Sequence record: MN850609.1
Length of the DNA: 64,000 nt
Origin: Escherichia phage dhaeg
Reading direction: 5' to 3' (one strand)
This document shows, in pieces, positions 2,746 to 42,908 of this stretch. Made by a program: the position numbers and the translations under genes. Numbering within the stretch: position 1 is the stretch's first letter; the number at the start of each line of letters is the position of its first letter. The notes below the pieces were generated by a model, which saw only the letters and a list, made by a program, of their open reading frames with translations, was not told the DNA's origin and searched no databases.

Positions 2746-3395
2746 CGAGTTCGACCTAATGTTCTCCCAGCCTGACCACACATAGACGAAAGTCTAGGAA
2801 ATCCTAAATCCGGTTTGATATCGTACCAATATAATGATATCGAGCCGGCATAGATGTTATCCAAATTAAAAAACGGGCATGAAAACATATAAGTGAAATG
2901 GGTTTTCTCCTTTGTAGGGAGAAACACAGATTCAGTAGATGATTCAAAATAGTTCCCGTTAACTCCCGCCATATACTCTACTGACGTTTTGTCAATCGGG
3001 AATCCTCCCGTATTTTTTGCGTCTACCGTTTCCGGTAATTTACCCTCATAAGCTACCATATCCACAAAATAATTCATGTTGGTTGGCCTAAAAGAATATA
3101 TTGCTGTGAAGTCTGCGCCTGAAGAAGAATGCACTATTCGGAGCTGCTCGATAGCCGCAATTTTAAATCTATTGTCCTGGTCTTGTCTAATCATTTCAGT
3201 ATAAGAGGCATAAGTTGTCTCTTTGTAAAAGTTTAGAATATGCTCGCCTTTATACCAAACCAATGCCATAAAGAACAATAATATTACGACTAGGACCCGG
3301 GAAAAAACTACTTTCCCGGAAGAAGTATCTTTAAAAATTCTATCAAGAAGTCCAAAAAGTAGGTCTGTTATTGAAAATCCTACTTTTGGTTCCAT
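2742..3395 (-). CDS. t: holin T
   Basis: 217 aa; DLLFGLLDRIFKD..GKV..SRV.VVILLF.MA.VWY N-terminus, single TM then large periplasmic domain, C-terminal NLDNIYAG; matches T4 T holin (218 aa). Confidence 0.9.
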   Translation of the reverse strand: MEPKVGFSITDLLFGLLDRIFKDTSSGKVVFSRVLVVILLFFMALVWYKGEHILNFYKETTYASYTEMIRQDQDNRFKIAAIEQLRIVHSSSGADFTAIYSFRPTNMNYFVDMVAYEGKLPETVDAKNTGGFPIDKTSVEYMAGVNGNYFESSTESVFLPTKEKTHFTYMFSCPFFNLDNIYAGSISLYWYDIKPDLGFPRLSSMCGQAGRTLGRTR

Positions 3396-3413
3396 ACTTT
3401 TCTCCTTTAAAGA

Positions 3414-3421
3414 TATTTATA
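3414..3421 (-). promoter_or_regulatory. late promoter TATAAATA for t
   Basis: reverse complement of tatttata gives TATAAATA about 19 nt upstream of the t start codon. Confidence 0.6.
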
Positions 3422-3432
3422 ATACAGAAGTA

Positions 3433-4221
3433 TTAAACTCGGCTGCCGTGAATAGTACCAACGTTTTGCCAAGAAGGAGCATTACCTGTAACGGCTGCAC
3501 CAGCAGAACCACCTGCAGAAGTATAAACGTTAGAACCCCATCCTCGTCCGCCGCCAGCACCAACGTTACCACCATTACCTGCACCGTATTGGACCGTGGT
3601 ACCACCTGTGCCTGCAGCAGTTAGGGATGCGTTTGAACCTGACAATATGCTATCTGAACCGATTTTGCCGCCGACACCAAATGGTCTACCACCACCGCCA
3701 CCACAGGAACCGTTAGTCGGGTAGTTATTTTGCAATGATACTGCGCCACCGCCACCGCCACCACCAGCAATAGTACCGTTGTTCCGAATGCGTAATTTGG
3801 TTCCTGCTGAGTTACGTATCGCAACACCGCCATTTCCACCTGCTGAACCGTTAGTTGAACCATTACCGCCGCGTCCATAAACAGTTACACCACTATTAAT
3901 AGTAAGTTGAATATATGCATTAGGAAGGTCGCTAGGAAATTCTAAACAAGCATTACCTGTACTATTAGATACTATGTTGCCGGTTACTGTGATAACGACA
4001 GGCGCACTGCCTTGGGCCCTCATCCAATTAATTAGTGTATTTTTGTCATAAGAGTTATTAGCCCCTATTGAATAGTAAATTTCTTTTGATTGGTTAGCCA
4101 TTGAACCCATCCAACCAGGAACAGCTACACGAACGTCTCGCATTGCCGCATCCATCCAACGTTGACCTGTTTCATCAACTGCGGATTGTCCAATCCAACC
4201 AGGTAATCCTACAATTGCCAT
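3433..4221 (-). CDS. 38: gp38 receptor-recognising adhesin, T2-type with glycine-rich motifs
   Basis: 262 aa; N-terminus MAIVGLPGWIGQSAVDE typical of T2-type gp38; poly-Gly tracts (GGGGGGG, GGGGGRPFGVGG) separated by variable segments. Confidence 0.8.
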   Translation of the reverse strand: MAIVGLPGWIGQSAVDETGQRWMDAAMRDVRVAVPGWMGSMANQSKEIYYSIGANNSYDKNTLINWMRAQGSAPVVITVTGNIVSNSTGNACLEFPSDLPNAYIQLTINSGVTVYGRGGNGSTNGSAGGNGGVAIRNSAGTKLRIRNNGTIAGGGGGGGAVSLQNNYPTNGSCGGGGGRPFGVGGKIGSDSILSGSNASLTAAGTGGTTVQYGAGNGGNVGAGGGRGWGSNVYTSAGGSAGAAVTGNAPSWQNVGTIHGSRV

Positions 4222-4232
4222 TATAAATCCTT

Positions 4233-4250
4233 AGAGGGCCGAAGCCCTCT
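4233..4250 (-). other. stem-loop between genes 37 and 38 (agagggc-cgaa-gccctct)
   Basis: perfect 7-bp GC-rich inverted repeat with 4-nt loop; no T-run follows on the minus strand, so likely an RNA stability or processing hairpin rather than a terminator. Confidence 0.4.
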
Positions 4251-4252
4251 TA

Positions 4253-7200
4253 TTAGTTTAACTTAGCTTCAAGTTCTTTTACTTTAGCCGACAGGGTTTT
4301 AACTGCTTCAATTAATAGAGCAACTTGTGCCTGAGTCGAAACTGTCAGAACTTTATTACCTTTGATATCTTCAACTTCACGAATAGCTTCAGGTAATACA
4401 TCATTCAATTTCTGAGCAATAACACCAGCTTCAGTATGAACAACCTCTCCACCAATATAATCAGCTTTATCATAGATTAAACCATCAAGCTGTTCAACCT
4501 TTTCAAGAGCGTTTTCAATTGGTTTGAAGTTTGATTTCAAACGAATATCAGAACGAATATAAACGTTTGGAGCATTTATATTCATATCTGAATAAGTGTC
4601 GCCACCTTGGAATCTCATTCGGCGGGCGGCATTGGTCCAAACTTCTAAAAGCCCGTCACCAACTTGTCTGAAACCCGTATCGTTATCGCCAATTGCAATC
4701 GAGTTACCACCCCAGGCATTAGTTGTGTTGACACCAAAGGCACCAATTTGAGGCGTATTAATCTTGGTATTAACGTTAAGAGTAGTTATACCGTTTACTT
4801 CACACTGGTTATATGAAGAACGGTTTGCACCACCTGGAGTTTTTTCGAAATAAACAATATAATTTGATTCGTCAGCTATTTCAATACGGTTTCCACGAGA
4901 AGCATCACCTGCATGGAATATACACATGTTTCTCGGGTTCGCCCCAGACTTATCAAAGTTAATGCTTCCATTATTTTTGAGGTTAAGGCCATTATAAAAC
5001 TCTGCAACTCCAGAAACACTCATAGAGTTTGAAATAGTTACTTTACCGGAAGCAATATTGATAGAAAAAGGCCTTAAACTGTTGTTAGAACCAGAGGCTT
5101 TAGTCTTATCAGTGTCAGTGTTCTTATCTGTTAATAATATATGGAACGTCGTACCATCATTATAAAACAGAGTAGCGGCAGAACCACTTTCATCACCATT
5201 GGATTTATGGCGGAAACCTACAGTTGTATTAGCAACAAAGGTGGCATTTGTAGAAATATTAGAACTACCCGCGTCAAAAACGTCTGAGCTATTATTAAGA
5301 AGTTTAAAAACACGACCTTTAACAGTATCTACAGGAAGCTCTTCTACCGGTGATTGCGTAGGCCCGTATAATCCATGAACTACTACTGAGGCGTTTTCTG
5401 AAGTGCTATATTCTAGAGTAAGTCTATTTAAATAAGTGCCACAATTAATATAAACATCATACTCATCGCCTGAGGTATTAACATACGCAATATCTTTAAT
5501 AGCATCTGTTTCACGTTGCCATAAAACACCGTTAATTCCTTTAGGCGTATTATTACCAGAACGTAATACAATTTCATTAATTGTTGCTTGTTTGAAAATA
5601 CCAACGTTAAAACCAGAGCCGCCTGTTATTTTAAATTGGACCGTAGCTACACCTTGAGGCATATTTACTGTTGCCAATTTATACCAACCACTTGCAGAAG
5701 AATAGTTAATCCAGCCCGTGGTAACTTTGCGGTCTAAAGTAGTATTCAGGTTAGAGAAATTACCAGAACCACCAGTGATATTACCATCCGTACCTAGATA
5801 AACAGAACCGCCAGCAGAAACACGTTTAGGAGATACAAAATCACCTGATTTAGTGAATTCCCAACCGTAGTCCGCAATCTGAGCACCGGTCGAACCACCA
5901 TCACCACCAGCATGATAATGAACGCGGAAGTTGCCGTTATTCAACAAAGTACCGATTGAAAAACATCCATTACCCTGAACATAACGTTGCTTAATCATTG
6001 GAACATAAGTGCTAGTATCATCTCGGTCAATATTCATGTAGAATGGAGCGCGGACATTTTCATTATTCTGGGAAGCAAATGAACCTGCACCAGCTGAACG
6101 ACCATTTGCATCCATCAAAGCATTTATATAAGCACCGTTTTCCAGGTCCATACGATAGTTAGGGTTAATTTTAGAATGACTGTTAATTGTAATCAAGAAT
6201 GCTTTGGTATCAATATTCAGCAGGCCATCGCCTCGAGCCGAGTTGCCTATCATTAAAGAATGGCCTATATTAATTGCGCCAGTACCTAATTCAATACTAA
6301 ATGGACGTAAATTGCTTATCGGCCCGTTTTCCCCTTCGTTTTCATTGGTTGGGATAATATGCAATGATGTTTCTGAGCGGCGGAAAATAGCCCCATACCG
6401 GTCGTTCCAAATTCTTAATGCGTCGTTAACGCCACCAATTTTAACCTGGCCGCTTATATTAGCGCCGCCGCGAATAGCCGCTCCATTTTCAAAAGTAACA
6501 CCACCACCAAAAGAACCTTTACCTGAAGCGGTAATATCGCCAAGACCAACGATATGACCTGTTTCAACAGTTCCGTTAAACTTAAAATTAACAGGTCCTA
6601 CACCACCAGCAACGGATGGATTAGTACGTTGAGCATAGAAATAATATCCTTGTGAGTCTGATACTTCGAATACAGTTTCTCTATTACCACCGCCCGCGTT
6701 AAATGAGTTACCCCATGCCTTAATTGTAACGGTATTTTTGTTCTGGCCATTTCGGGTGCCGGCGTCCCAGTTAATGGTTTTAGTACCATCTACACCGGAA
6801 GGAGCTTTAAATGATAATGCATTGGTATTATCATCACCGTTTAAAAATAAACCAGTACGCATAGAAATGCGATTGGTGGAGTCAAATGTACCATCTGCTC
6901 TAATAGCAACTCTATTGGACCCGGTTTTAACATCTAAAATACCCGGCTCAACAAGAAGCCCGTCGCCCATACTAACAGACATACGACCTTGGCCACGGAA
7001 ATAGTGATACATCTTTGCATTGCTGCTATAACCGATATGAGTCTGCCCATCACCGTTATTATTATCGTCGACATCAGTGCGTGCAGTAAACATTGCTTGG
7101 TTGTTATTTGGGAAATCCCATGTAGTACCTGAATCACGGCTATAACCAACCATCAATTTCTTAGTGCTATTAATACCGTTATTCAAAATGGTAGCAGATG

Positions 7201-8227
7201 AAATACCATTAGCCATGAAATCAATAACACCATCGCGGACCCATTTAATACCGGTATCGTTATCGCCAATTGCAATACCAATAGAAATGGCGGAATCTAA
7301 AGGATAGCGTCCATTTGTACCGTTATCCGGAAGACCTACTGAAATAGATTTACCCGCAGTAATACGTCCAGAGTTATCAAACGCCCATTGGAAAGATGAA
7401 GGACCTACACCAGTCCACCAAGAAATTTCTTGTGGTTTACCTTTGCGACAATCAGCAATTTCATGGAAAATACTTGATGCACTTGATGCACGCAATTTAC
7501 GCAAATAGTTTAAACCGTTAGTAGTATCATCAGAGCCATCAGCAGGTGGATTATAAACCCAGGTAGGTAATGAAACCCAATCATACCCGATGTTGGCGTT
7601 AGCTACAAATGTTTTTGTACTGAAATTAATATTTTTGGTAACAATTTCAGGACCGGTGATAATACCATTAGCTGAATTTATGTTTCCTGATGCAGAAATA
7701 TTACCTGCTGATACCATTAAACTACCGCTATCAACTTGAAAATTACCATTACGATTAAAGGTCCAATATTTTGAATCACCTGTTTCATTAATATAGTGGA
7801 ATTTAAAACTGCCTTCGTTTACTAATGTACCTGCTGAAAAAGTACCGTCTTTATAACGTTGCTTAATCAAAGGGTGGTATTCTGAAACAGAAGTAGTTGA
7901 ACTCAAATCTGTAAAGATAGGGGCTTTATTCAGATGTTGGTTAGCCCAGGCGCCGTTGCCAGCTGTTTTAGGCAGGAATTCGATGTATTTACCTGCATAA
8001 ACATATTGGTTGCCATTGAGGTTAAATGTCCCGTTTTGAAGAACATCCCCATCAATGGTCCCACCCTTTGCAAAGCCTAAATCAATAATCTGACCTTGGT
8101 CTGACTTAGTAAAAATAGTGCGATCACGCAAGTTAATAGCCAGTTCACCTTCATCTAACTGGGCTGCAGTAGGCTTGGCTCCTGCTATTTTACTTCTTTT
8201 AAATTGTATCGATTTTAAAGTAGCCAT
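4253..8227 (-). CDS. 37: long tail fibre distal subunit gp37
   Basis: 1324 aa; position between gp36 and gp38; Gly/Asn/Thr/Ser-rich fibrous composition; size fits T2-type gp37. Confidence 0.85.
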   Translation of the reverse strand: MATLKSIQFKRSKIAGAKPTAAQLDEGELAINLRDRTIFTKSDQGQIIDLGFAKGGTIDGDVLQNGTFNLNGNQYVYAGKYIEFLPKTAGNGAWANQHLNKAPIFTDLSSTTSVSEYHPLIKQRYKDGTFSAGTLVNEGSFKFHYINETGDSKYWTFNRNGNFQVDSGSLMVSAGNISASGNINSANGIITGPEIVTKNINFSTKTFVANANIGYDWVSLPTWVYNPPADGSDDTTNGLNYLRKLRASSASSIFHEIADCRKGKPQEISWWTGVGPSSFQWAFDNSGRITAGKSISVGLPDNGTNGRYPLDSAISIGIAIGDNDTGIKWVRDGVIDFMANGISSATILNNGINSTKKLMVGYSRDSGTTWDFPNNNQAMFTARTDVDDNNNGDGQTHIGYSSNAKMYHYFRGQGRMSVSMGDGLLVEPGILDVKTGSNRVAIRADGTFDSTNRISMRTGLFLNGDDNTNALSFKAPSGVDGTKTINWDAGTRNGQNKNTVTIKAWGNSFNAGGGNRETVFEVSDSQGYYFYAQRTNPSVAGGVGPVNFKFNGTVETGHIVGLGDITASGKGSFGGGVTFENGAAIRGGANISGQVKIGGVNDALRIWNDRYGAIFRRSETSLHIIPTNENEGENGPISNLRPFSIELGTGAINIGHSLMIGNSARGDGLLNIDTKAFLITINSHSKINPNYRMDLENGAYINALMDANGRSAGAGSFASQNNENVRAPFYMNIDRDDTSTYVPMIKQRYVQGNGCFSIGTLLNNGNFRVHYHAGGDGGSTGAQIADYGWEFTKSGDFVSPKRVSAGGSVYLGTDGNITGGSGNFSNLNTTLDRKVTTGWINYSSASGWYKLATVNMPQGVATVQFKITGGSGFNVGIFKQATINEIVLRSGNNTPKGINGVLWQRETDAIKDIAYVNTSGDEYDVYINCGTYLNRLTLEYSTSENASVVVHGLYGPTQSPVEELPVDTVKGRVFKLLNNSSDVFDAGSSNISTNATFVANTTVGFRHKSNGDESGSAATLFYNDGTTFHILLTDKNTDTDKTKASGSNNSLRPFSINIASGKVTISNSMSVSGVAEFYNGLNLKNNGSINFDKSGANPRNMCIFHAGDASRGNRIEIADESNYIVYFEKTPGGANRSSYNQCEVNGITTLNVNTKINTPQIGAFGVNTTNAWGGNSIAIGDNDTGFRQVGDGLLEVWTNAARRMRFQGGDTYSDMNINAPNVYIRSDIRLKSNFKPIENALEKVEQLDGLIYDKADYIGGEVVHTEAGVIAQKLNDVLPEAIREVEDIKGNKVLTVSTQAQVALLIEAVKTLSAKVKELEAKLN

Positions 8228-36610: not shown

Positions 36611-38116
36611 ATGATTTTAGATATTTTGAACGAAATTGCTGCTATCGATTCTACTAAAGCTAAAGAAGCTATTATTGCTCGTGAAAAGGATAACGAGCTT
36701 CTGAAACGTGTTTATCATATGGCTTATACCCGTCGTCTGAACTACGGTATTAAAAAGTGGCCAGAACCTGGATTTACGTCTCAATCCTTTGGTATGATTA
36801 CACTTGAAGACCTTCTTGATTTCGCTGAGTTCACACTAGCAACCCGTAAGATTACAGGTAATGCTGCTATTGAAGAACTTGCTCAAATTATTGCTGATGC
36901 CAAGGGTCCTGACGCTGAGGTATTACGTCGCGTAATGATGCGTGACCTTGAATGTGGTGCATCGATTTCTATTGCCAACAAGGTTTGGAAAGGTTTAATC
37001 CCTGAACAACCTCAAATGTTGGCTAGTTCTTATGACGAAGCTCTAATTAAGAAAAATATTAAATGGCCAGCGTTCGCTCAATTAAAAGCTGACGGTGCTC
37101 GTTGTTTTGCTGAAGTTCGTAACGATGGGGTAACATTCCTTACTCGTGGTGGTAATGAATATCAAGGGCTTACTAAGCTTGCAGCCGAACTTATTAAAAT
37201 GACTGAAGAAGCTCGTCAGCGCCATCCTAATGGTGTTATGATTGACGGCGAATTAGTTTACCATACACCTAAAGTAGAACCTAAAGCATCTAATGATTTG
37301 TTTAGTATGTTTGATGAGGAACTTCCTGAATTAAGTAAGGCTAAGGAATTCCAAACCGTAGCTGATCGTTCTACGTCAAATGGCTTGGCTAATAAAGCCC
37401 TCCAAGGAACTATTACTCCGGCTGAAGCTGATGGTATGGTATTACAGGCATGGGACTTTGTTCCACTGGATGAAGTTTATTCTGAAGGCAAAATTAAAGG
37501 TCAAAAATACGATGTTCGTTTAGCGGCATTAGTACAAATGGCTGAAGGTTTTACACGTGTCGAGCCTATCGAAACGCAATGGGTTAATAATCTTGACGAA
37601 GCTAAAGTCGTTTATAAGAAATATGTCGACCAAGGTCTGGAAGGTATTATCCTTAAGAACATGGACTCCTACTGGGAAAACCGCCGTTCTAAGAATCTTA
37701 TCAAGTTCAAAGAAGTAATTGATATCGCTTTAGAAGTGGTGGGTTATTATGAACACTCGAAGGACCCTAACAAACTTGGTGGTGTCGAGCTAGTATCGCG
37801 GTGTCGTCGAATTACATCCGACTGTGGTTCAGGCTTTAAAGATACTACCCATAAGAAAGATAAATCAGGTAAAAAGGTATTGATTCCATTGGAAGACCGT
37901 CCTGATTTAGACCGTGAACTTCTTATGAAACAAGCTCGTGAAGGTAAGTTGATTGGACGTATTGCTGACTGTGAATGTAATGGTTGGGTTCATTCTAAAG
38001 GACGTACAGATACTGTAGGTATTTTCCTTCCAATTATTAAAGGTTGGCGTTTCGATAAAACAGAAGCTGATACATTTGAAGATGTATTTGGTGATTGGTC
38101 TCAAACTGGACTATAA
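36611..38116 (+). CDS. 30: ATP-dependent DNA ligase
   Basis: 501 aa; MIL.ILNEIA.I.STK.K.AI....KDNELLKRVY, adenylation lysine block AQLKADGARCFAEVR, DGELVY, LEGIILKN match T4 DNA ligase. Confidence 0.97.
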   Translation: MILDILNEIAAIDSTKAKEAIIAREKDNELLKRVYHMAYTRRLNYGIKKWPEPGFTSQSFGMITLEDLLDFAEFTLATRKITGNAAIEELAQIIADAKGPDAEVLRRVMMRDLECGASISIANKVWKGLIPEQPQMLASSYDEALIKKNIKWPAFAQLKADGARCFAEVRNDGVTFLTRGGNEYQGLTKLAAELIKMTEEARQRHPNGVMIDGELVYHTPKVEPKASNDLFSMFDEELPELSKAKEFQTVADRSTSNGLANKALQGTITPAEADGMVLQAWDFVPLDEVYSEGKIKGQKYDVRLAALVQMAEGFTRVEPIETQWVNNLDEAKVVYKKYVDQGLEGIILKNMDSYWENRRSKNLIKFKEVIDIALEVVGYYEHSKDPNKLGGVELVSRCRRITSDCGSGFKDTTHKKDKSGKKVLIPLEDRPDLDRELLMKQAREGKLIGRIADCECNGWVHSKGRTDTVGIFLPIIKGWRFDKTEADTFEDVFGDWSQTGL

Positions 38117-38117
38117 T

Positions 38118-38288
38118 ATGAAAGCTTATTTAGAAACAATTGTTGTAACAAATACAAATACCACCGCGGCCTCTCAAATCATCCTAGAGTTTGAGGATGA
38201 AATAGCTTTTGCCGATTTTAAAGACGTGTTTGATGGCTATGAAAAAGGCCCGACATTCGAAGTATATCGTACGTTGCTACCACTTTAA
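38118..38288 (+). CDS. hypothetical small protein (56 aa)
   Basis: ORF from MKAYLE; followed by terminator. Confidence 0.35.
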   Translation: MKAYLETIVVTNTNTTAASQIILEFEDEIAFADFKDVFDGYEKGPTFEVYRTLLPL

Positions 38289-38305
38289 GGCCTTCGGGCC
38301 TTTTA
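38288..38305 (+). terminator. intrinsic terminator
   Basis: aaggccTTCGggcctttt. Confidence 0.65.
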
Positions 38306-38338
38306 TGGCATAAATACGGTTATTAAAGAGGAATTATT

Positions 38339-40399
38339 ATGACCGAACAATTGAATGAGGTGTTTGAGTCCGAAGGCACCCTGCCTACTGTAAACTTAAA
38401 CCCAAAACTTAAAGTACCGCAGATTTGGAAGATTGGCGACGCCGAATCCCAATTAGTGGCCCGTATGGTATCTTATGCCTCTGAAGGCGATGCTATTAAA
38501 CAGGTTAAATTAGGTGATAAATACGCCCATGTTATCCTTATGAGCCTTTCAGCTAAAGGTTCTCCGGCCGAACTTAAAGGTGGCTTAGGCCCTACTCCTA
38601 TTGATGCTATTAATACCATTTTCGACGTAGTATTCGAACAAGTTAAAAAGCTTCGTATGGATGCTGTGATGTTCCGTTTTCCAACCAAGAAAATGAAAGG
38701 GCAAGGACCTATTGTCCAACGGATTATCCAACGTTTGGTAGCACAGAAAACCGGTGGACGTTTTAAAGTAGTTCCGGCTATGTACCAATTTACCGGTAAA
38801 CATACTTATATCCTAGTAGTTCGTAAACAAGCTGATATCGAAGATATCAAAGGTATGCCTGGAATTAATGCCGAATTGTATACTAAGGTAGATTCTGATG
38901 TTGGTGAAGTTTATATTTCTAAAAAAGAAGGCCTGCAGGTTACTAAAGAAACTGCTATTGCCGGCAGTATTGCTAAAGTTGAAGAACGTCGCACTGATAA
39001 AATGGTTATAACCAAGACTAAGATTTCTCGTCGCGCTATTGCAGCAAGCCAGTCTTTAGAATCCTATCGTAATGAAAGTGAACTGTTTAAGAAATATGAA
39101 GCCACTGCCGCTGATTTTAATAAACCGGCAACAGCTCCATTAATCCCTGATGCCCAAGAAATGGTTACTAATAACAATTCTCCTGCGGCTAAAAATAAGG
39201 TTGCTAATATAGTAGCTGAAGGCACTGCTGAAGAGTTGCATTACGATTATAAAATGTTTCCTCTTCACGGTATAGGTGAAATCCAAGAGAAAATTAAAGA
39301 GAGAATCCTTACGGCCATCAAAAACGAACCTTTGACATCTGTTAAAGCTCTAGAAAAATATGCCTCTGTTATTAATACCGTTTTCGAAGAATACAAAGGT
39401 GAATGGCTGGCTAAGCATAACAAAACTCGTAAAGGTCAGCCTGATGACGTCTGGAATGAATTAACCGAGTCCAAGTGGAAAGCAGCCAAGACCAAGTTCA
39501 TTAAAAAACGTGTGTATAGTTTTGCTGGTGTAGGTGGTGGTATTATGGTTGATATTACTTTAGGTCATAGTGCAGATAAATACACCCCTTCTCAAAAACG
39601 TGGTATTCGTGAATATTGTGGCTCCGGATATGGCGATATCAATAACCTTCTTTTAGGACGATATAATCCTCAGAACTATGAGGTTATGAGCGAAAAAGAT
39701 ATCGAATCTGCAGTTAATAATTTGGATTCTGCTTTTGAAAACGGTGATAGATTACCTGAAGGCATTACTGTTTATCGTGCACAGAGTATGACGTGGGCCA
39801 TATATAATGCTTTAGTCAAAAATAAAGTATTCTATTTTAGAAACTTTGTATCCACTTCACTGACTCCTATTATTTTCGGCCGTTTTGGTGTTACTCATGC
39901 GGGTGTGGGTCTTTTAGAGCCTGAAGTTAGAGCCGAACTTACCGTAGATAAAAATGATGAAGGTTATACTAAGGTCCAAGGTTCCGGCGACAAGTTGGTT
40001 AAAGTTGGTTGGGCTATTGATGGGGCTTCTAAGGTTAACGTAGTATTCCCTGGGCAACTTGGCATTGCTACTGAAGCTGAAATCATTCTCCCGCGTGGAC
40101 TAATGGTAAAAATTAATAAAATAACAGATGCATCCAATAATGACGGTATAATATCCAACAATACAAAACTCATTCAAGCTGAAGTTATGACAACAGATGA
40201 GCTTCAAGAGTCAGTGGTATATGATGGTGATGTACTAATGGAAACTGGTGAATTGGTTGTATACCAAGATGACTTCGATACTTCCGAAAGCCCTGTATCT
40301 TTTGATTCATTTGTTAAATCTACACGGTTTGACGTACTGCCTCTTTTGGCTTCATGCATAGACCTCTATGACATCCCAGAAAAATTCATCCAAGGGTAA
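38339..40399 (+). CDS. alt: Alt-like ADP-ribosyltransferase, paralog 1
   Basis: 686 aa; N-terminal packaging region like T4 Alt (..LP.TNL.PK.K.PQI, MDAVMFRFPTKKMKG); C-terminal R-S-ExE ART signature (VYRAQ, FVSTSL, EAEIILPRG). Confidence 0.85.
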   Translation: MTEQLNEVFESEGTLPTVNLNPKLKVPQIWKIGDAESQLVARMVSYASEGDAIKQVKLGDKYAHVILMSLSAKGSPAELKGGLGPTPIDAINTIFDVVFEQVKKLRMDAVMFRFPTKKMKGQGPIVQRIIQRLVAQKTGGRFKVVPAMYQFTGKHTYILVVRKQADIEDIKGMPGINAELYTKVDSDVGEVYISKKEGLQVTKETAIAGSIAKVEERRTDKMVITKTKISRRAIAASQSLESYRNESELFKKYEATAADFNKPATAPLIPDAQEMVTNNNSPAAKNKVANIVAEGTAEELHYDYKMFPLHGIGEIQEKIKERILTAIKNEPLTSVKALEKYASVINTVFEEYKGEWLAKHNKTRKGQPDDVWNELTESKWKAAKTKFIKKRVYSFAGVGGGIMVDITLGHSADKYTPSQKRGIREYCGSGYGDINNLLLGRYNPQNYEVMSEKDIESAVNNLDSAFENGDRLPEGITVYRAQSMTWAIYNALVKNKVFYFRNFVSTSLTPIIFGRFGVTHAGVGLLEPEVRAELTVDKNDEGYTKVQGSGDKLVKVGWAIDGASKVNVVFPGQLGIATEAEIILPRGLMVKINKITDASNNDGIISNNTKLIQAEVMTTDELQESVVYDGDVLMETGELVVYQDDFDTSESPVSFDSFVKSTRFDVLPLLASCIDLYDIPEKFIQG

Positions 40400-40402
40400 A
40401 TA

Positions 40403-42526
40403 ATGGAAAATTTAAACGAAGTTTTTGATAGTGATTCCGCTAAAAACTATCCAGTAACAAATCTTAAACCAGGCTCCGGTATCCCACAGATTTTCTCTAT
40501 TCAAGCACCAGGTAACGATAACCTGGTTGCTCGTATGGTATCTTATGCGTCTCAAGGAGACGCTATTAAAATGGTTAAGCCCGGCGACAAATACGTTCAT
40601 GTTATTTTAATGAGTTTGTCGAGCAAGGGTGCTCCAGCTGAACTAAAAGGTGGCCTTGGTTCCGACCCACTTGGTACATTGAATACTATTTTCGATACGA
40701 TATATGAACAAGTAAATAAACTTAAAATGGATGCGGTTTTGTTCCGTTTCCCTACCAAGAAAATGAAAGGTAAGGGCCCTACTGTTCAGCGTGTATTAGC
40801 TCGTTTGGCGATGGCACGTACCGGTGGTAAGTTTAAAGTTGTCGATAGCATGTTCCAGTTTAGTGGTAAACATACATACGTTCTTTTAGCACGTCGTGGC
40901 ACTAATATCGAAGATATCAAGGGTATGCCTGAAATTGATGCGGACCTTTATACCAAGGTTGAGTCTAAAGTCGGTGAAGTTTATGTTTCTAAGAAAACCG
41001 GCCAGGCCGTAAGTAAGGTCGAAGCCGTAGCAGCATCTATTGCACAGGTTGAAGAGAAACGTACCGATAAGGCTGTTATCTCTCGTACTAAAATTTCCCG
41101 TCGTATGGCTGCAGCAGCGCAGTATTCTACTGCCGAACCTGAAACTTTATCACCTAAAGAATTGCAGGTTTATAACGAGTTTGAAGCTTCCGTCCCTGTT
41201 CACTCGGCCGAAGGCCCTGAGAACGAAGGTATTGAACAAATTAGCCAGAACTTTAAAAAAGGTGCTATTACTAAAATGCGTCAGGCCTCTCAGTTTAAAT
41301 CTAAGAGTGAGGACCTTGCCAACTTTAGATACACCATTGCTCTCACACACGCTTTAATGACTGATAGTAAATTTAAACTAAATTATGCTAATAGAGATAA
41401 ACAAGGGTTTGAAATTTACTCTAATAATATGGCATTTTTTAATACGGAAGTCGATAGACTTTTAAGCGGCCTTTCTCAAATCAATACTACCAATAGTCTG
41501 GATATTATTAAGAGAATTGTTAATAACCTGAGTGCCCGTTTTCAGGGGTCTCCTTCAGAGAAAGCATCCCGAATTGCTTTCGCTATGGAAGCCGTTTATA
41601 AACTGATTAACGATTCTATTAGCGATGCATATGCTTATTCAGGCGAGCTCATTAAACCTAAGGGCTTGACCAAAGACGAAAGTAATGCCATTATTGAATA
41701 TTGTGCGGCTGAATATGCTCCTATGAACTTATTCCTTTTAGGTAAACCTGAATCCGAAAACAATACAACAGCTATTAAATTGATTAAGGATTTAGACTCA
41801 GCATTTACCAAGGGTATTAAACTTCCTAAGGGTACTATTTTGTATCGTGGTCAGGATTTACCATACAAAATTCTGCGCCATAATATTGATAACAAAACCT
41901 TTTACTTTAAGAACTTTGTATCCGCTTCATTAAAGCCTAATATCTTTGGTGAATTTGGTAAAAATTATATGGCCCTCGACAACCAAGCAGTTTTTGTTGG
42001 TGATGAAGGTTCTTTATCCTCCGCCGATGAGTTGTTTAAATTGGCCAGTGGTAGTTCATCTGACGTAGGTGAAGTTGATGATGAAGAGGTAGAATGGGAA
42101 GAAGACGAGTTTGGTAATCCAATTGCACCTGAAGGCCCTGCAGACAGGATTGCTGAAATTGGTATGGTTATTCGAGGTGCTGAAGCAGTTAAAGTTATCG
42201 CTCCTGGTGACCTTACAGAATATGCCGAAGAAGCGGAAATTATCCTTCCGCGCGGATTATTGTTGAAGGTTGATAAAGTAGCAGCTTTTGCTATGAATGA
42301 TAGGGTATCTCACAAATACCTTATGGAAGCTACAGTGACATCTCCTTCAGAACTCAGTGAGTCCGTTTACGATGGTGACCATCTGATGGAAACCGGCGAA
42401 GTTAAATTGATGAATGGGTTTAAAGAATTCCTAGTTTCAGAATCTGTTTCAGAAAGTAACGAGGCTATGGAAATCCTTGCTGCATCTTTGGACATCTCTT
42501 CTTTACCAAATAAATTCAAAATGTAG
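40403..42526 (+). CDS. Alt-like ADP-ribosyltransferase, paralog 2
   Basis: 707 aa; first ~230 aa closely similar to paralog 1, divergent middle; ART signature (LYRGQ, FVSASL, EEAEIILPRG). Confidence 0.85.
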   Translation: MENLNEVFDSDSAKNYPVTNLKPGSGIPQIFSIQAPGNDNLVARMVSYASQGDAIKMVKPGDKYVHVILMSLSSKGAPAELKGGLGSDPLGTLNTIFDTIYEQVNKLKMDAVLFRFPTKKMKGKGPTVQRVLARLAMARTGGKFKVVDSMFQFSGKHTYVLLARRGTNIEDIKGMPEIDADLYTKVESKVGEVYVSKKTGQAVSKVEAVAASIAQVEEKRTDKAVISRTKISRRMAAAAQYSTAEPETLSPKELQVYNEFEASVPVHSAEGPENEGIEQISQNFKKGAITKMRQASQFKSKSEDLANFRYTIALTHALMTDSKFKLNYANRDKQGFEIYSNNMAFFNTEVDRLLSGLSQINTTNSLDIIKRIVNNLSARFQGSPSEKASRIAFAMEAVYKLINDSISDAYAYSGELIKPKGLTKDESNAIIEYCAAEYAPMNLFLLGKPESENNTTAIKLIKDLDSAFTKGIKLPKGTILYRGQDLPYKILRHNIDNKTFYFKNFVSASLKPNIFGEFGKNYMALDNQAVFVGDEGSLSSADELFKLASGSSSDVGEVDDEEVEWEEDEFGNPIAPEGPADRIAEIGMVIRGAEAVKVIAPGDLTEYAEEAEIILPRGLLLKVDKVAAFAMNDRVSHKYLMEATVTSPSELSESVYDGDHLMETGEVKLMNGFKEFLVSESVSESNEAMEILAASLDISSLPNKFKM

Positions 42527-42583: not shown

Positions 42584-42874
42584 ATGAAATCTGCATTCCG
42601 TTTTAATGGTCAAGAACTGGTAGTTGAAAACGTTATCCCTGCTTCTGAAGAGTTCGACAGTGCAGTAGGTAATGAATTACGTCGAGTTTTCGGCGAAGAC
42701 AAACAGTTCGACTTACGCCCGGTTGAAAATTTTTCACAACCTGAGCAAACCGAAAATATTTTTAATGGTGTAGTAACCGGTCAGCTTGAATCTGAAGCTC
42801 CTATTTCTATCACGGTCTTTGTTAAAAAGCAGCCATTAATGACCGCTGCAGGTTTTATCTCGTTCCGTAAATAA
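42584..42874 (+). CDS. hypothetical protein (96 aa)
   Basis: SD catgaggagaacatt; followed by terminator. Confidence 0.5.
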   Translation: MKSAFRFNGQELVVENVIPASEEFDSAVGNELRRVFGEDKQFDLRPVENFSQPEQTENIFNGVVTGQLESEAPISITVFVKKQPLMTAAGFISFRK

Positions 42875-42883
42875 ACCCCTAAA

Positions 42884-42908
42884 GGAGAGCGTAAGCTCTC
42901 CTTTTTTG
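42884..42908 (+). terminator. intrinsic terminator
   Basis: ggagagc-gtaa-gctctcc + TTTTTTG. Confidence 0.7.

Follow-up and report, generated by a model that had tools for sequence, protein, structure and literature searches.

Why does a phage encode two Alt proteins when T4, from which nearly all knowledge of injected phage ADP-ribosyltransferases (ARTs) comes, has one? The question is raised by a locus of Escherichia phage dhaeg (sequence record MN850609.1), of which a stretch of 64,000 nucleotides (nt), here called the window, was analyzed. There, altA (38339..40399; 686 amino acids, aa) is followed after a spacer of 3 nt by altB (40403..42526; 707 aa), both on the + strand. A second, very different Alt of this kind is encoded by many T-even relatives and by every Dhakavirus record examined. 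In T4, the prohead core holds about 40 copies of the non-essential Alt protein, which enters the host together with the DNA and ADP-ribosylates the alpha subunit of RNA polymerase as well as other proteins (PMC9026906, PMC5512222). We present evidence that AltA and AltB, which differ from each other and both belong to the T4 Alt family of arginine-specific mono-ADP-ribosyltransferases, are probably encoded by a late operon, packaged, and injected, and probably act on different sets of substrates.

AltA and AltB are complete Alt-family proteins

An initial annotation, made from the sequence without database searches, had described two adjacent genes for full-length Alt-type enzymes of 686 and 707 aa, with closely similar N-terminal regions of ca. 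230 aa, differing central regions, and complete R-S-ExE signatures. All of this is upheld by the present comparison. The open reading frame (ORF) listing gives both genes exactly, and their membership in the family is far beyond chance: AltA and AltB match PF03496 with 111.7 and 65.3 bits, respectively, against a Pfam gathering score of 23.4, and each matches the "Alt-like" family PHROG 802 from end to end (AltA residues 1-685, E 7e-258; AltB residues 1-707, E 1e-250). Both are collinear with T4 Alt over their full length, including the N-terminal domain, and all homologues carry the precomputed domain pair PF03496 + PF26846. The gene order is also that of T4, with DNA ligase (gene 30), alt.1, the alt array, alt.-3, and the convergent baseplate genes gp54 and gp48; the array thus lies between gene 30/alt.1 and alt.-3/gene 54, which is the position of the Alt family.

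Similarity between the two proteins is uneven. BLASTP aligns residues 3-238 of AltA with residues 2-240 of AltB (64% identity, or 64-65% over ca. 240 aa; E 3e-103), and the C-terminal ca. 300 aa at 34% identity (E 2e-41), with no match between the N-terminal and C-terminal regions. Profile-profile comparison of the two middles with hhalign gave a probability of 0.3%.

Alignment and domain matches divide each protein into five parts. In AltA, the first-slot Alt with a payload of the Bas37/UFV-AREG1 "Alt" type, a predicted N-propeptide (aa 1-7; 38339..38359) ending in L5-N6-E7 is followed by a basic alpha/beta N-domain, a genus-specific module with an isoelectric point (pI) of 9.8 (aa 8-238; 38360..39052), a middle that AlphaFold2 models as all-helical and that forms part of the payload cassette (aa 239-378; 39053..39472), the ART domain (aa 379-624; 39473..40210; PF03496 over residues 379-619), and a predicted acidic C-propeptide of pI 4.05 behind L622-Q-E624 (aa 625-686; 40211..40396). 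In AltB, the second paralogue (altb in JS10, Alt2 in the BASEL phages), the corresponding parts are a predicted N-propeptide ending in L4-N5-E6 (aa 1-6; 40403..40420), an N-domain of pI 9.8 (aa 7-240; 40421..41122), a helical middle without detectable kinship to that of AltA (aa 241-419; 41123..41659), an acidic ART domain (aa 420-653; 41660..42361; PF03496 over residues 420-646), and a predicted C-propeptide behind L651-S-E653 (aa 654-707; 42362..42523).

The catalytic signature is complete in both proteins. AltA has Y479-R480-A-Q, F503-V-S505-T-S507, and E579-A-E581-IILPRG, with R480 encoded at 39776-39778, S505/S507 at 39851-39859, and E579/E581 at 40073-40081; AltB has Y481-R482-G-Q, F505-V-S507-A-S509, and E610-A-E612-IILPRG, with R482 at 41846-41848, S507/S509 at 41921-41929, and E610/E612 at 42230-42238. 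When AltA and AltB are aligned with T4 Alt and all three MX01 copies, the Arg, Ser-x-Ser, and Glu-x-Glu columns are invariant, so that neither protein has an inactivating substitution at the catalytic Arg or Glu, and the catalytic residues of AltB are likewise invariant among its orthologues. As to numbering, the inactive T4 mutant was published as E577A (PMC11404850), and the ExE glutamates counted in the RefSeq T4 protein (gene at 5455-7503 of the T4 locus) are E574 and E576.

T4 Alt is cut by the prohead protease gp21 after ITE-6 and LTE-619, yielding a mature protein of 68.2 kDa (Ali 2017, PMC5694885). An L/I-x-E triplet occurs at both aligned positions in AltA (LNE-7 and LQE-624) and in AltB (LNE-6 and LSE-653). 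Segmentation at these sites gives 68.2 kDa for T4 Alt, and predicts mature proteins of 68.3 kDa for AltA and 71.1 kDa for AltB. In all three proteins the N-domain is basic (pI 9.5-9.8) and the C-propeptide acidic (pI 4.0-4.4). The ART domains of the pair are unlike in charge: that of AltB has a pI of 4.6 and a net charge of -17, that of AltA a pI of 7.9. The AltB domain contains a long acidic insertion, SSDVGEVDDEEVEWEEDEFGNPIAPEGP, at residues ca. 535-575 (window 42000-42120); other AltB-type proteins have a shorter version of this insertion or none, so that it is a variable surface loop.

N-domain and payload have discordant histories

We compared the proteins module by module, using AltA and AltB of the window, T4 Alt, the two Alt proteins of UFV-AREG1 (a Tequatrovirus), and the three of MX01. 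Within one genome, the N-domains of the A and B paralogues are 65% identical in Dhakavirus and 68% identical in Tequatrovirus, whereas across genera the identity is 41-47% whichever paralogue is taken. For the middle, the two paralogues of one genome share 10-12% identity, as against 64% (AltA/UFV_1) and 44% (AltB/UFV_2) across genera; for the ART domain, the values are 36-37% within a genome and 83% (AltA/UFV_1) and 59% (AltB/UFV_2) across genera. A four-taxon bootstrap analysis gave the same picture, with the N-domain grouping by genus (100%) and the middle (100%), ART domain (100%), and C-propeptide (99.75%) grouping by paralogue type, and each paralogue has cross-genus orthologues. Since the last three modules group by type and the N-domain by genus, the split between A and B payloads is older than the divergence of Tequatrovirus and Dhakavirus. 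A recent or lineage-specific duplication was rejected, because the split predates the genera and T4 seems to have lost its second gene, as described below.

The genus-wise grouping of the N-domains is best read as homogenization or replacement within each lineage. This probably took place long ago, because the synonymous divergence (dS) between the altA and altB N-domains is about 1.7, and hence saturated. Recent gene conversion as the source of the N-domain similarity was considered and rejected, given this dS and the longest DNA repeats of 283 nt at 72% and 115 nt at 78% identity.

Pairwise ratios of nonsynonymous to synonymous divergence (dN/dS) are low for every module of altA and altB, indicating purifying selection. 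For example, the AltB ART domain differs from its MX01 orthologue by a dN of 0.00 and a dS of 0.29, and the ART domain of MX01 copy 1 differs from that of UFV_1, across genera, by a dN of 0.04 and a dS of 0.55.

Exchange of the payload is most evident within Tequatrovirus. Between the Alt of UFV-AREG1/Bas37 and T4 Alt, the N-domain has a dS of 0.13 (99-100% aa identity) and the C-propeptide a dS of 0.08, whereas the middle and ART domain lying between them have a dS of 1.2-1.3, with aa identities of 33% in the middle and 66-67% in the ART domain. The UFV-AREG1/Bas37 cassette is instead of the window AltA type (64% identity in the middle and 83-84% in the ART domain). The sequences thus point to exchange of the middle and ART domain together, as one cassette. 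The N-domain, the putative delivery module, has a history discordant with that of the payload, which has been exchanged between lineages, and the diversity of the locus appears to come from exchange of modules and from gain and loss of copies, not from rapid point evolution.

Among close relatives, the number of alt copies varies from one to three, as does the type of payload. Three tandem copies are present in some Dhakaviruses (MX01, QL01, AnYang, and Bp7), whose slots 1 and 3 hold the orthologues of window altA and altB, respectively, and whose slot-2 gene the window lacks. When window 40403-40883 was compared with slot 2 (3940-5985) and slot 3 (5989-8112) of the MX01 locus, the first ca. 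180 nt of altB were 93-98% identical to slot 2, and from nt ca. 480 onward altB resembled slot 3 (90-97% identity); informative sites change from slot 2 to slot 3 around nt 240-480, placing the switch at about 40643-40883, within the N-domain. Such a slot-2/slot-3 chimera is what unequal crossover in the repeated N-domain sequence would leave behind, and it suggests that an array of three copies was in this way reduced to two.

Two irregular alt genes were noted elsewhere. The second alt of the Citrobacter phage CF1 (Moonvirus) consists of two overlapping ORFs (3850-5028 and 5025-5972 of its locus sequence), and could be a pseudogene with a frameshift, the product of an error in sequencing, or a truly split Alt; BFVD lists a "split" Alt in the Acinetobacter phage Henu6.

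The one-copy locus of T4 appears to be derived

The tandem pair is already annotated and is common in this group of phages, so that it is not new and, as a genomic finding, is ordinary. Escherichia phage dhabil (Dhakavirus, Tevenvirinae), in which the two genes are annotated as "ADP ribosyltransferase," matches the window at 99.8% identity. JS10, IME08, CLB_P2, and others are 90-97% identical to the region, and the GenBank names of the pair in JS10 and IME08 are alta and altb. In Tequatroviruses of the BASEL collection (Bas37, Bas39, and Bas42), the same two slots are annotated "Alt" and "Alt2." Paralogues adjoining alt in 44RR and RB49, as well as the T4 ORFs alt.-1 and alt.-2, were noted by Nolan et al. 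in 2006 (PMC1524935). We found 1823 occurrences of the Alt N-domain in 1201 phage records, and the AltB-type payload, with a query coverage of at least 80%, in 464 phage records.

T4 itself carries alt.-1 and alt.-2, homologues of the N-domain, in the slot downstream of alt where altB of the window is intact. These ORFs match residues 1-56 and 62-116 of UFV-AREG1 Alt2 at 95-98% identity, and T4 lacks about 1.7 kb after them (T4 locus 5066-5451 compared with UFV-AREG1 locus 3239-5296). This identity, followed by the missing 1.7 kb, indicates that alt.-1 and alt.-2 are the stump of a truncated full-length Alt2, which T4 has lost. The comparison therefore does not favor the note in the T4 record by which they are a duplicated first part of alt. 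On this evidence, the single alt of T4 is a derived state, and the pair are ancient paralogues whose modules have been shuffled.

A candidate late operon

The region upstream of altA resembles that of T4. A GC hairpin, AAGGCC-TTCG-GGCCTT, with a run of T, read from the sequence just upstream of altA (38287..38304, +), is terminator-like and unchanged in T4, UFV-AREG1, MX01, and CF1; the terminator scan gave it no score. In the alignment of upstream regions, it is followed by CATAAATA (38309..38316, +), the positional homologue, with one mismatch, of the T4-type late promoter TATAAATA. The same alignment column holds TATAAATA in T4, UFV-AREG1, and CF1, and CATAAATA in the window and MX01. No exact TATAAATA late promoter is present near the altA start, and CATAAATA may serve as the late promoter. 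A strong Shine-Dalgarno sequence, AAAGAGGA, precedes altA (38325..38332, +). Because of the conserved hairpin, the late-promoter position, the Shine-Dalgarno sequence, and the 3-nt gap, we infer that altA and altB form one late operon.

Two probably injected enzymes with probably different targets

By analogy with T4 Alt, AltA and AltB would be made late in infection and built into the prohead core, where gp21 would trim both ends of each, leaving proteins of the sizes predicted above. They would then be injected with the DNA and, within seconds of the start of infection, ADP-ribosylate host proteins, presumably on arginine. The payload would be the middle+ART block, which is expected to set the targets; because this block differs fundamentally between AltA and AltB, two injected enzymes with different substrate sets would result.

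That the cassette may set specificity is suggested by work on Mokosh type I. According to a preprint (10.1101/2025.11.20.689424), T4 Alt contributes to evasion of this system, and phage rescue against it was obtained with Alt(T4), not with Alt(Bas37) (bas37_0033). Because these two proteins differ essentially in the middle+ART cassette only, that of Bas37 being of the window AltA type, and are not interchangeable, the result supports, indirectly, a role of the cassette in setting functional specificity. The initial annotation had proposed that the two injected enzymes may have diverged in target specificity or form an arms-race pair. As regards the payloads, the divergence is strong (ART pI 4.6 versus 7.9, and unrelated middles); as regards the targets, it is plausible that those of AltA and AltB differ, the support from the pair and from Mokosh being indirect.

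Several observations weigh against this picture. Our literature searches turned up neither virion proteomics nor data on activity or targets for the AltB/Alt2 of any phage, and likewise no work on Dhakavirus Alt or on virions containing both copies; the HIDEN-SEQ preprint text that we read mentions only bas37_0033 (Alt), and neither Alt2 nor bas37_0032 was found in it, so that it gives no phenotype for Alt2. In addition, the promoter-like site departs from TATAAATA at one position, and the L/I-x-E motif is short, with several other such triplets in each protein.

Some of these points would suit a division of labor in which AltA alone is packaged and injected, with AltB acting late in the producing cell or being mainly structural in the prohead core. 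Proteomic evidence of AltB in virions did not emerge from the literature, T4 and its closest relatives manage without AltB, and Alt is described as both enzyme and core protein (PMC11404850). We nevertheless regard this explanation as unlikely, because AltB retains the full N-domain and, at the positions used in T4 Alt, both cleavage motifs and an acidic C-propeptide, because altB, only 3 nt behind altA, is probably co-transcribed with it, and because the catalytic residues of AltB are invariant among orthologues.

An ART identity of only about 36%, the absence of detectable homology between the middles, and the unlike charges of the ART domains make it improbable that the two proteins are redundant duplicates, sharing RNA polymerase alpha and other targets, with the second copy serving for dose or as a back-up. 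The split is moreover older than the genera, with both lineages under purifying selection, and even cassettes far more alike than these do not substitute for each other in function. Redundancy would agree with the common catalytic motif type (ExE, which predicts Arg specificity), with the shared N-domain and propeptide layout, and with the reported promiscuity of T4 Alt itself (PMC5512222).

Finally, an arms-race or decoy pair, in which one paralogue backs up the other against host sensing or defense under rapid positive selection, is very improbable: although Alt is needed against Mokosh type I, with variants differing in that ability, and both copy number (1-3) and payload type vary among close relatives, dN/dS is low throughout both genes, variation arises by cassette exchange and by loss or gain of copies instead of point substitutions, and no defense system has been tied to AltB.

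The N-domain as a possible carrier of exchangeable payloads

Two distinct injected enzymes remain our preferred explanation of the pair. A broader proposal, which we put forward tentatively and hold somewhat short of even likelihood, is that the alt locus of T-even-type phages works as an array of cassettes encoding injected effectors. The genus-specific, basic, and possibly GNAT-derived N-domain would provide both delivery into the capsid and a recombination handle by which payloads are swapped, added, or deleted; AltB/Alt2 would be a second injected ART with targets of its own, possibly with an anti-defense role, that was overlooked because T4 keeps only a stump of it.

AlphaFold2 models of AltA residues 1-420 (mean predicted local distance difference test score, pLDDT, 83.3) and AltB residues 1-430 (mean pLDDT 80.5) share one plan, in which the all-helical middle comes after an alpha/beta N-domain that spans about residues 15-220 with a pLDDT of about 85-93. 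The modeled N-domain fold is weakly GNAT-like, a resemblance that is unproven. Five N-domains had no match in Pfam up to an E value of 10 and none in NCBIfam, a sequence search of the PDB yielded no meaningful match, and a profile search of PDB sequences with the N-domain gave only chance matches (E ≥ 0.1), no GNAT protein among them. The acetyl-CoA pyrophosphate-binding motif A of GNAT enzymes has the form Q/R-x-x-G-x-G/A after beta4; in the regions considered for it, the AltB N-domain contains two conserved Gly-rich loops, LKGGLG (81-86) and KKMKGKG (119-125), each before a helix, and G86, G123, R115, and R134 (AltB numbering) are invariant.

We also searched 1.84 billion cluster representatives with the N-domain, using phmmer. 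This gave 70 clusters, nearly all of them of 600-712 aa, the length range of Alt, and a few of odd length without a Pfam ART match. Fusion of the N-domain to non-ART cargo was therefore unsupported at the sequence level, and the domain is not detectably a general carrier of other types of effector. Foldseek matches of the N-domain in BFVD to proteins of Ackermannviridae, Vibrio, and jumbo phages were weak, with template modeling (TM) scores of 0.24-0.30. Among rare metagenomic proteins, two, of 1142 and 541 aa, carry an Alt N-domain followed by a long region without a Pfam ART match; the first has a degenerate ART-like stretch and an extension of ca. 600 aa, and no ART motif was visible by eye in the second.

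Since evasion of Mokosh depends on the Alt variant, Alt2/AltB is a reasonable candidate for another host-takeover or anti-defense activity. It is also relevant to differences in host range among therapeutic T4-like phages, and what Alt2/AltB modifies is a question worth experiment.

Neighboring genes

Upstream, the 56-aa alt.1 homologue (38118..38288, +; PF24647, E 4.8e-22; phrog_1976) lies between DNA ligase and altA. The small ORF in this place is annotated alt.1 in dhabil, JS10, and T4, and its family, PF24647, bears the recent Pfam name "Phage blade protein." The DNA ligase coding sequence, cut off by the end of the linear record in dhabil (MN850621, 23-478), is complete in the window (36611-38116; 501 aa), so that the window either bridges the arbitrary ends of that permuted record or stems from a very close relative.

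Downstream of the array, the 96-aa homologue of alt.-3 (42584..42874, +; DUF5498, PF17602, E 3.6e-34; phrog_1739) occupies the same position in T4, UFV-AREG1, MX01, CF1, and the BASEL phages, whatever the number of alt copies. A role as chaperone or inhibitor of the ARTs is conceivable. A terminator-like hairpin with a T run (42881..42904, +), identified by the terminator scan and by reading the sequence, separates the alt operon from the convergent gp54; it was the sole feature to stand out in scans for sigma-70 promoters and terminators, which were otherwise at background. No tRNA was found in the window, and no Rfam family within 36-45 kb.

Comparison with known systems

The closest characterized relative is T4 Alt (gpAlt, NP_049811), a head-packaged NAD:arginine ADP-ribosyltransferase. 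Like the window pair, it has the five-part layout, the R/S-x-S/E-x-E residues, both gp21 cleavage motifs, the genomic position, and the upstream hairpin, with a promoter-like site that in the window has one mismatch. It is 49% identical to AltA overall, with 61-65% in the ART domain and 34-35% in the middle, and so carries a different variant of the cassette. Its overall identity to AltB is 35%, the AltB middle being unrelated and the AltB ART domain acidic. AltB of the window is 99% identical to that of JS10, whereas the Alt2 of UFV-AREG1/Bas37, in the same slot, is 44-45% identical to it in the middle, 58-59% in the ART domain, and 57-59% in the C-propeptide. The N-domain identity of Alt2 and AltB, 44%, follows genus rather than paralogue, and the acidic loop in the ART domain is longer in AltB than in its Alt2-type relatives.

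More distantly, the C3/VIP2/iota-type R-S-E toxins (PF03496) and T4 ModA and ModB share the catalytic domain family and the motif order of Alt (PMC5512222). To these, the Alt proteins add the N-domain, the helical middle, and propeptides for capsid delivery, and ModA and ModB are not packaged.

Two other systems resemble the alt locus in logic only. Polymorphic toxin systems, as alt seems to do, keep the delivery part constant and exchange the payloads joined to it at a single locus; unlike them, the alt locus has no evident immunity gene, and alt.-3 occurs once per array, not once per payload. The T4 internal proteins IPI-III join a conserved capsid-targeting sequence to a hypervariable anti-defense payload (PMC3012670). 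Whereas the conserved part of IPI-III is a peptide of 10-20 aa, that of Alt is a folded domain of 230 aa that is kept in the mature protein.

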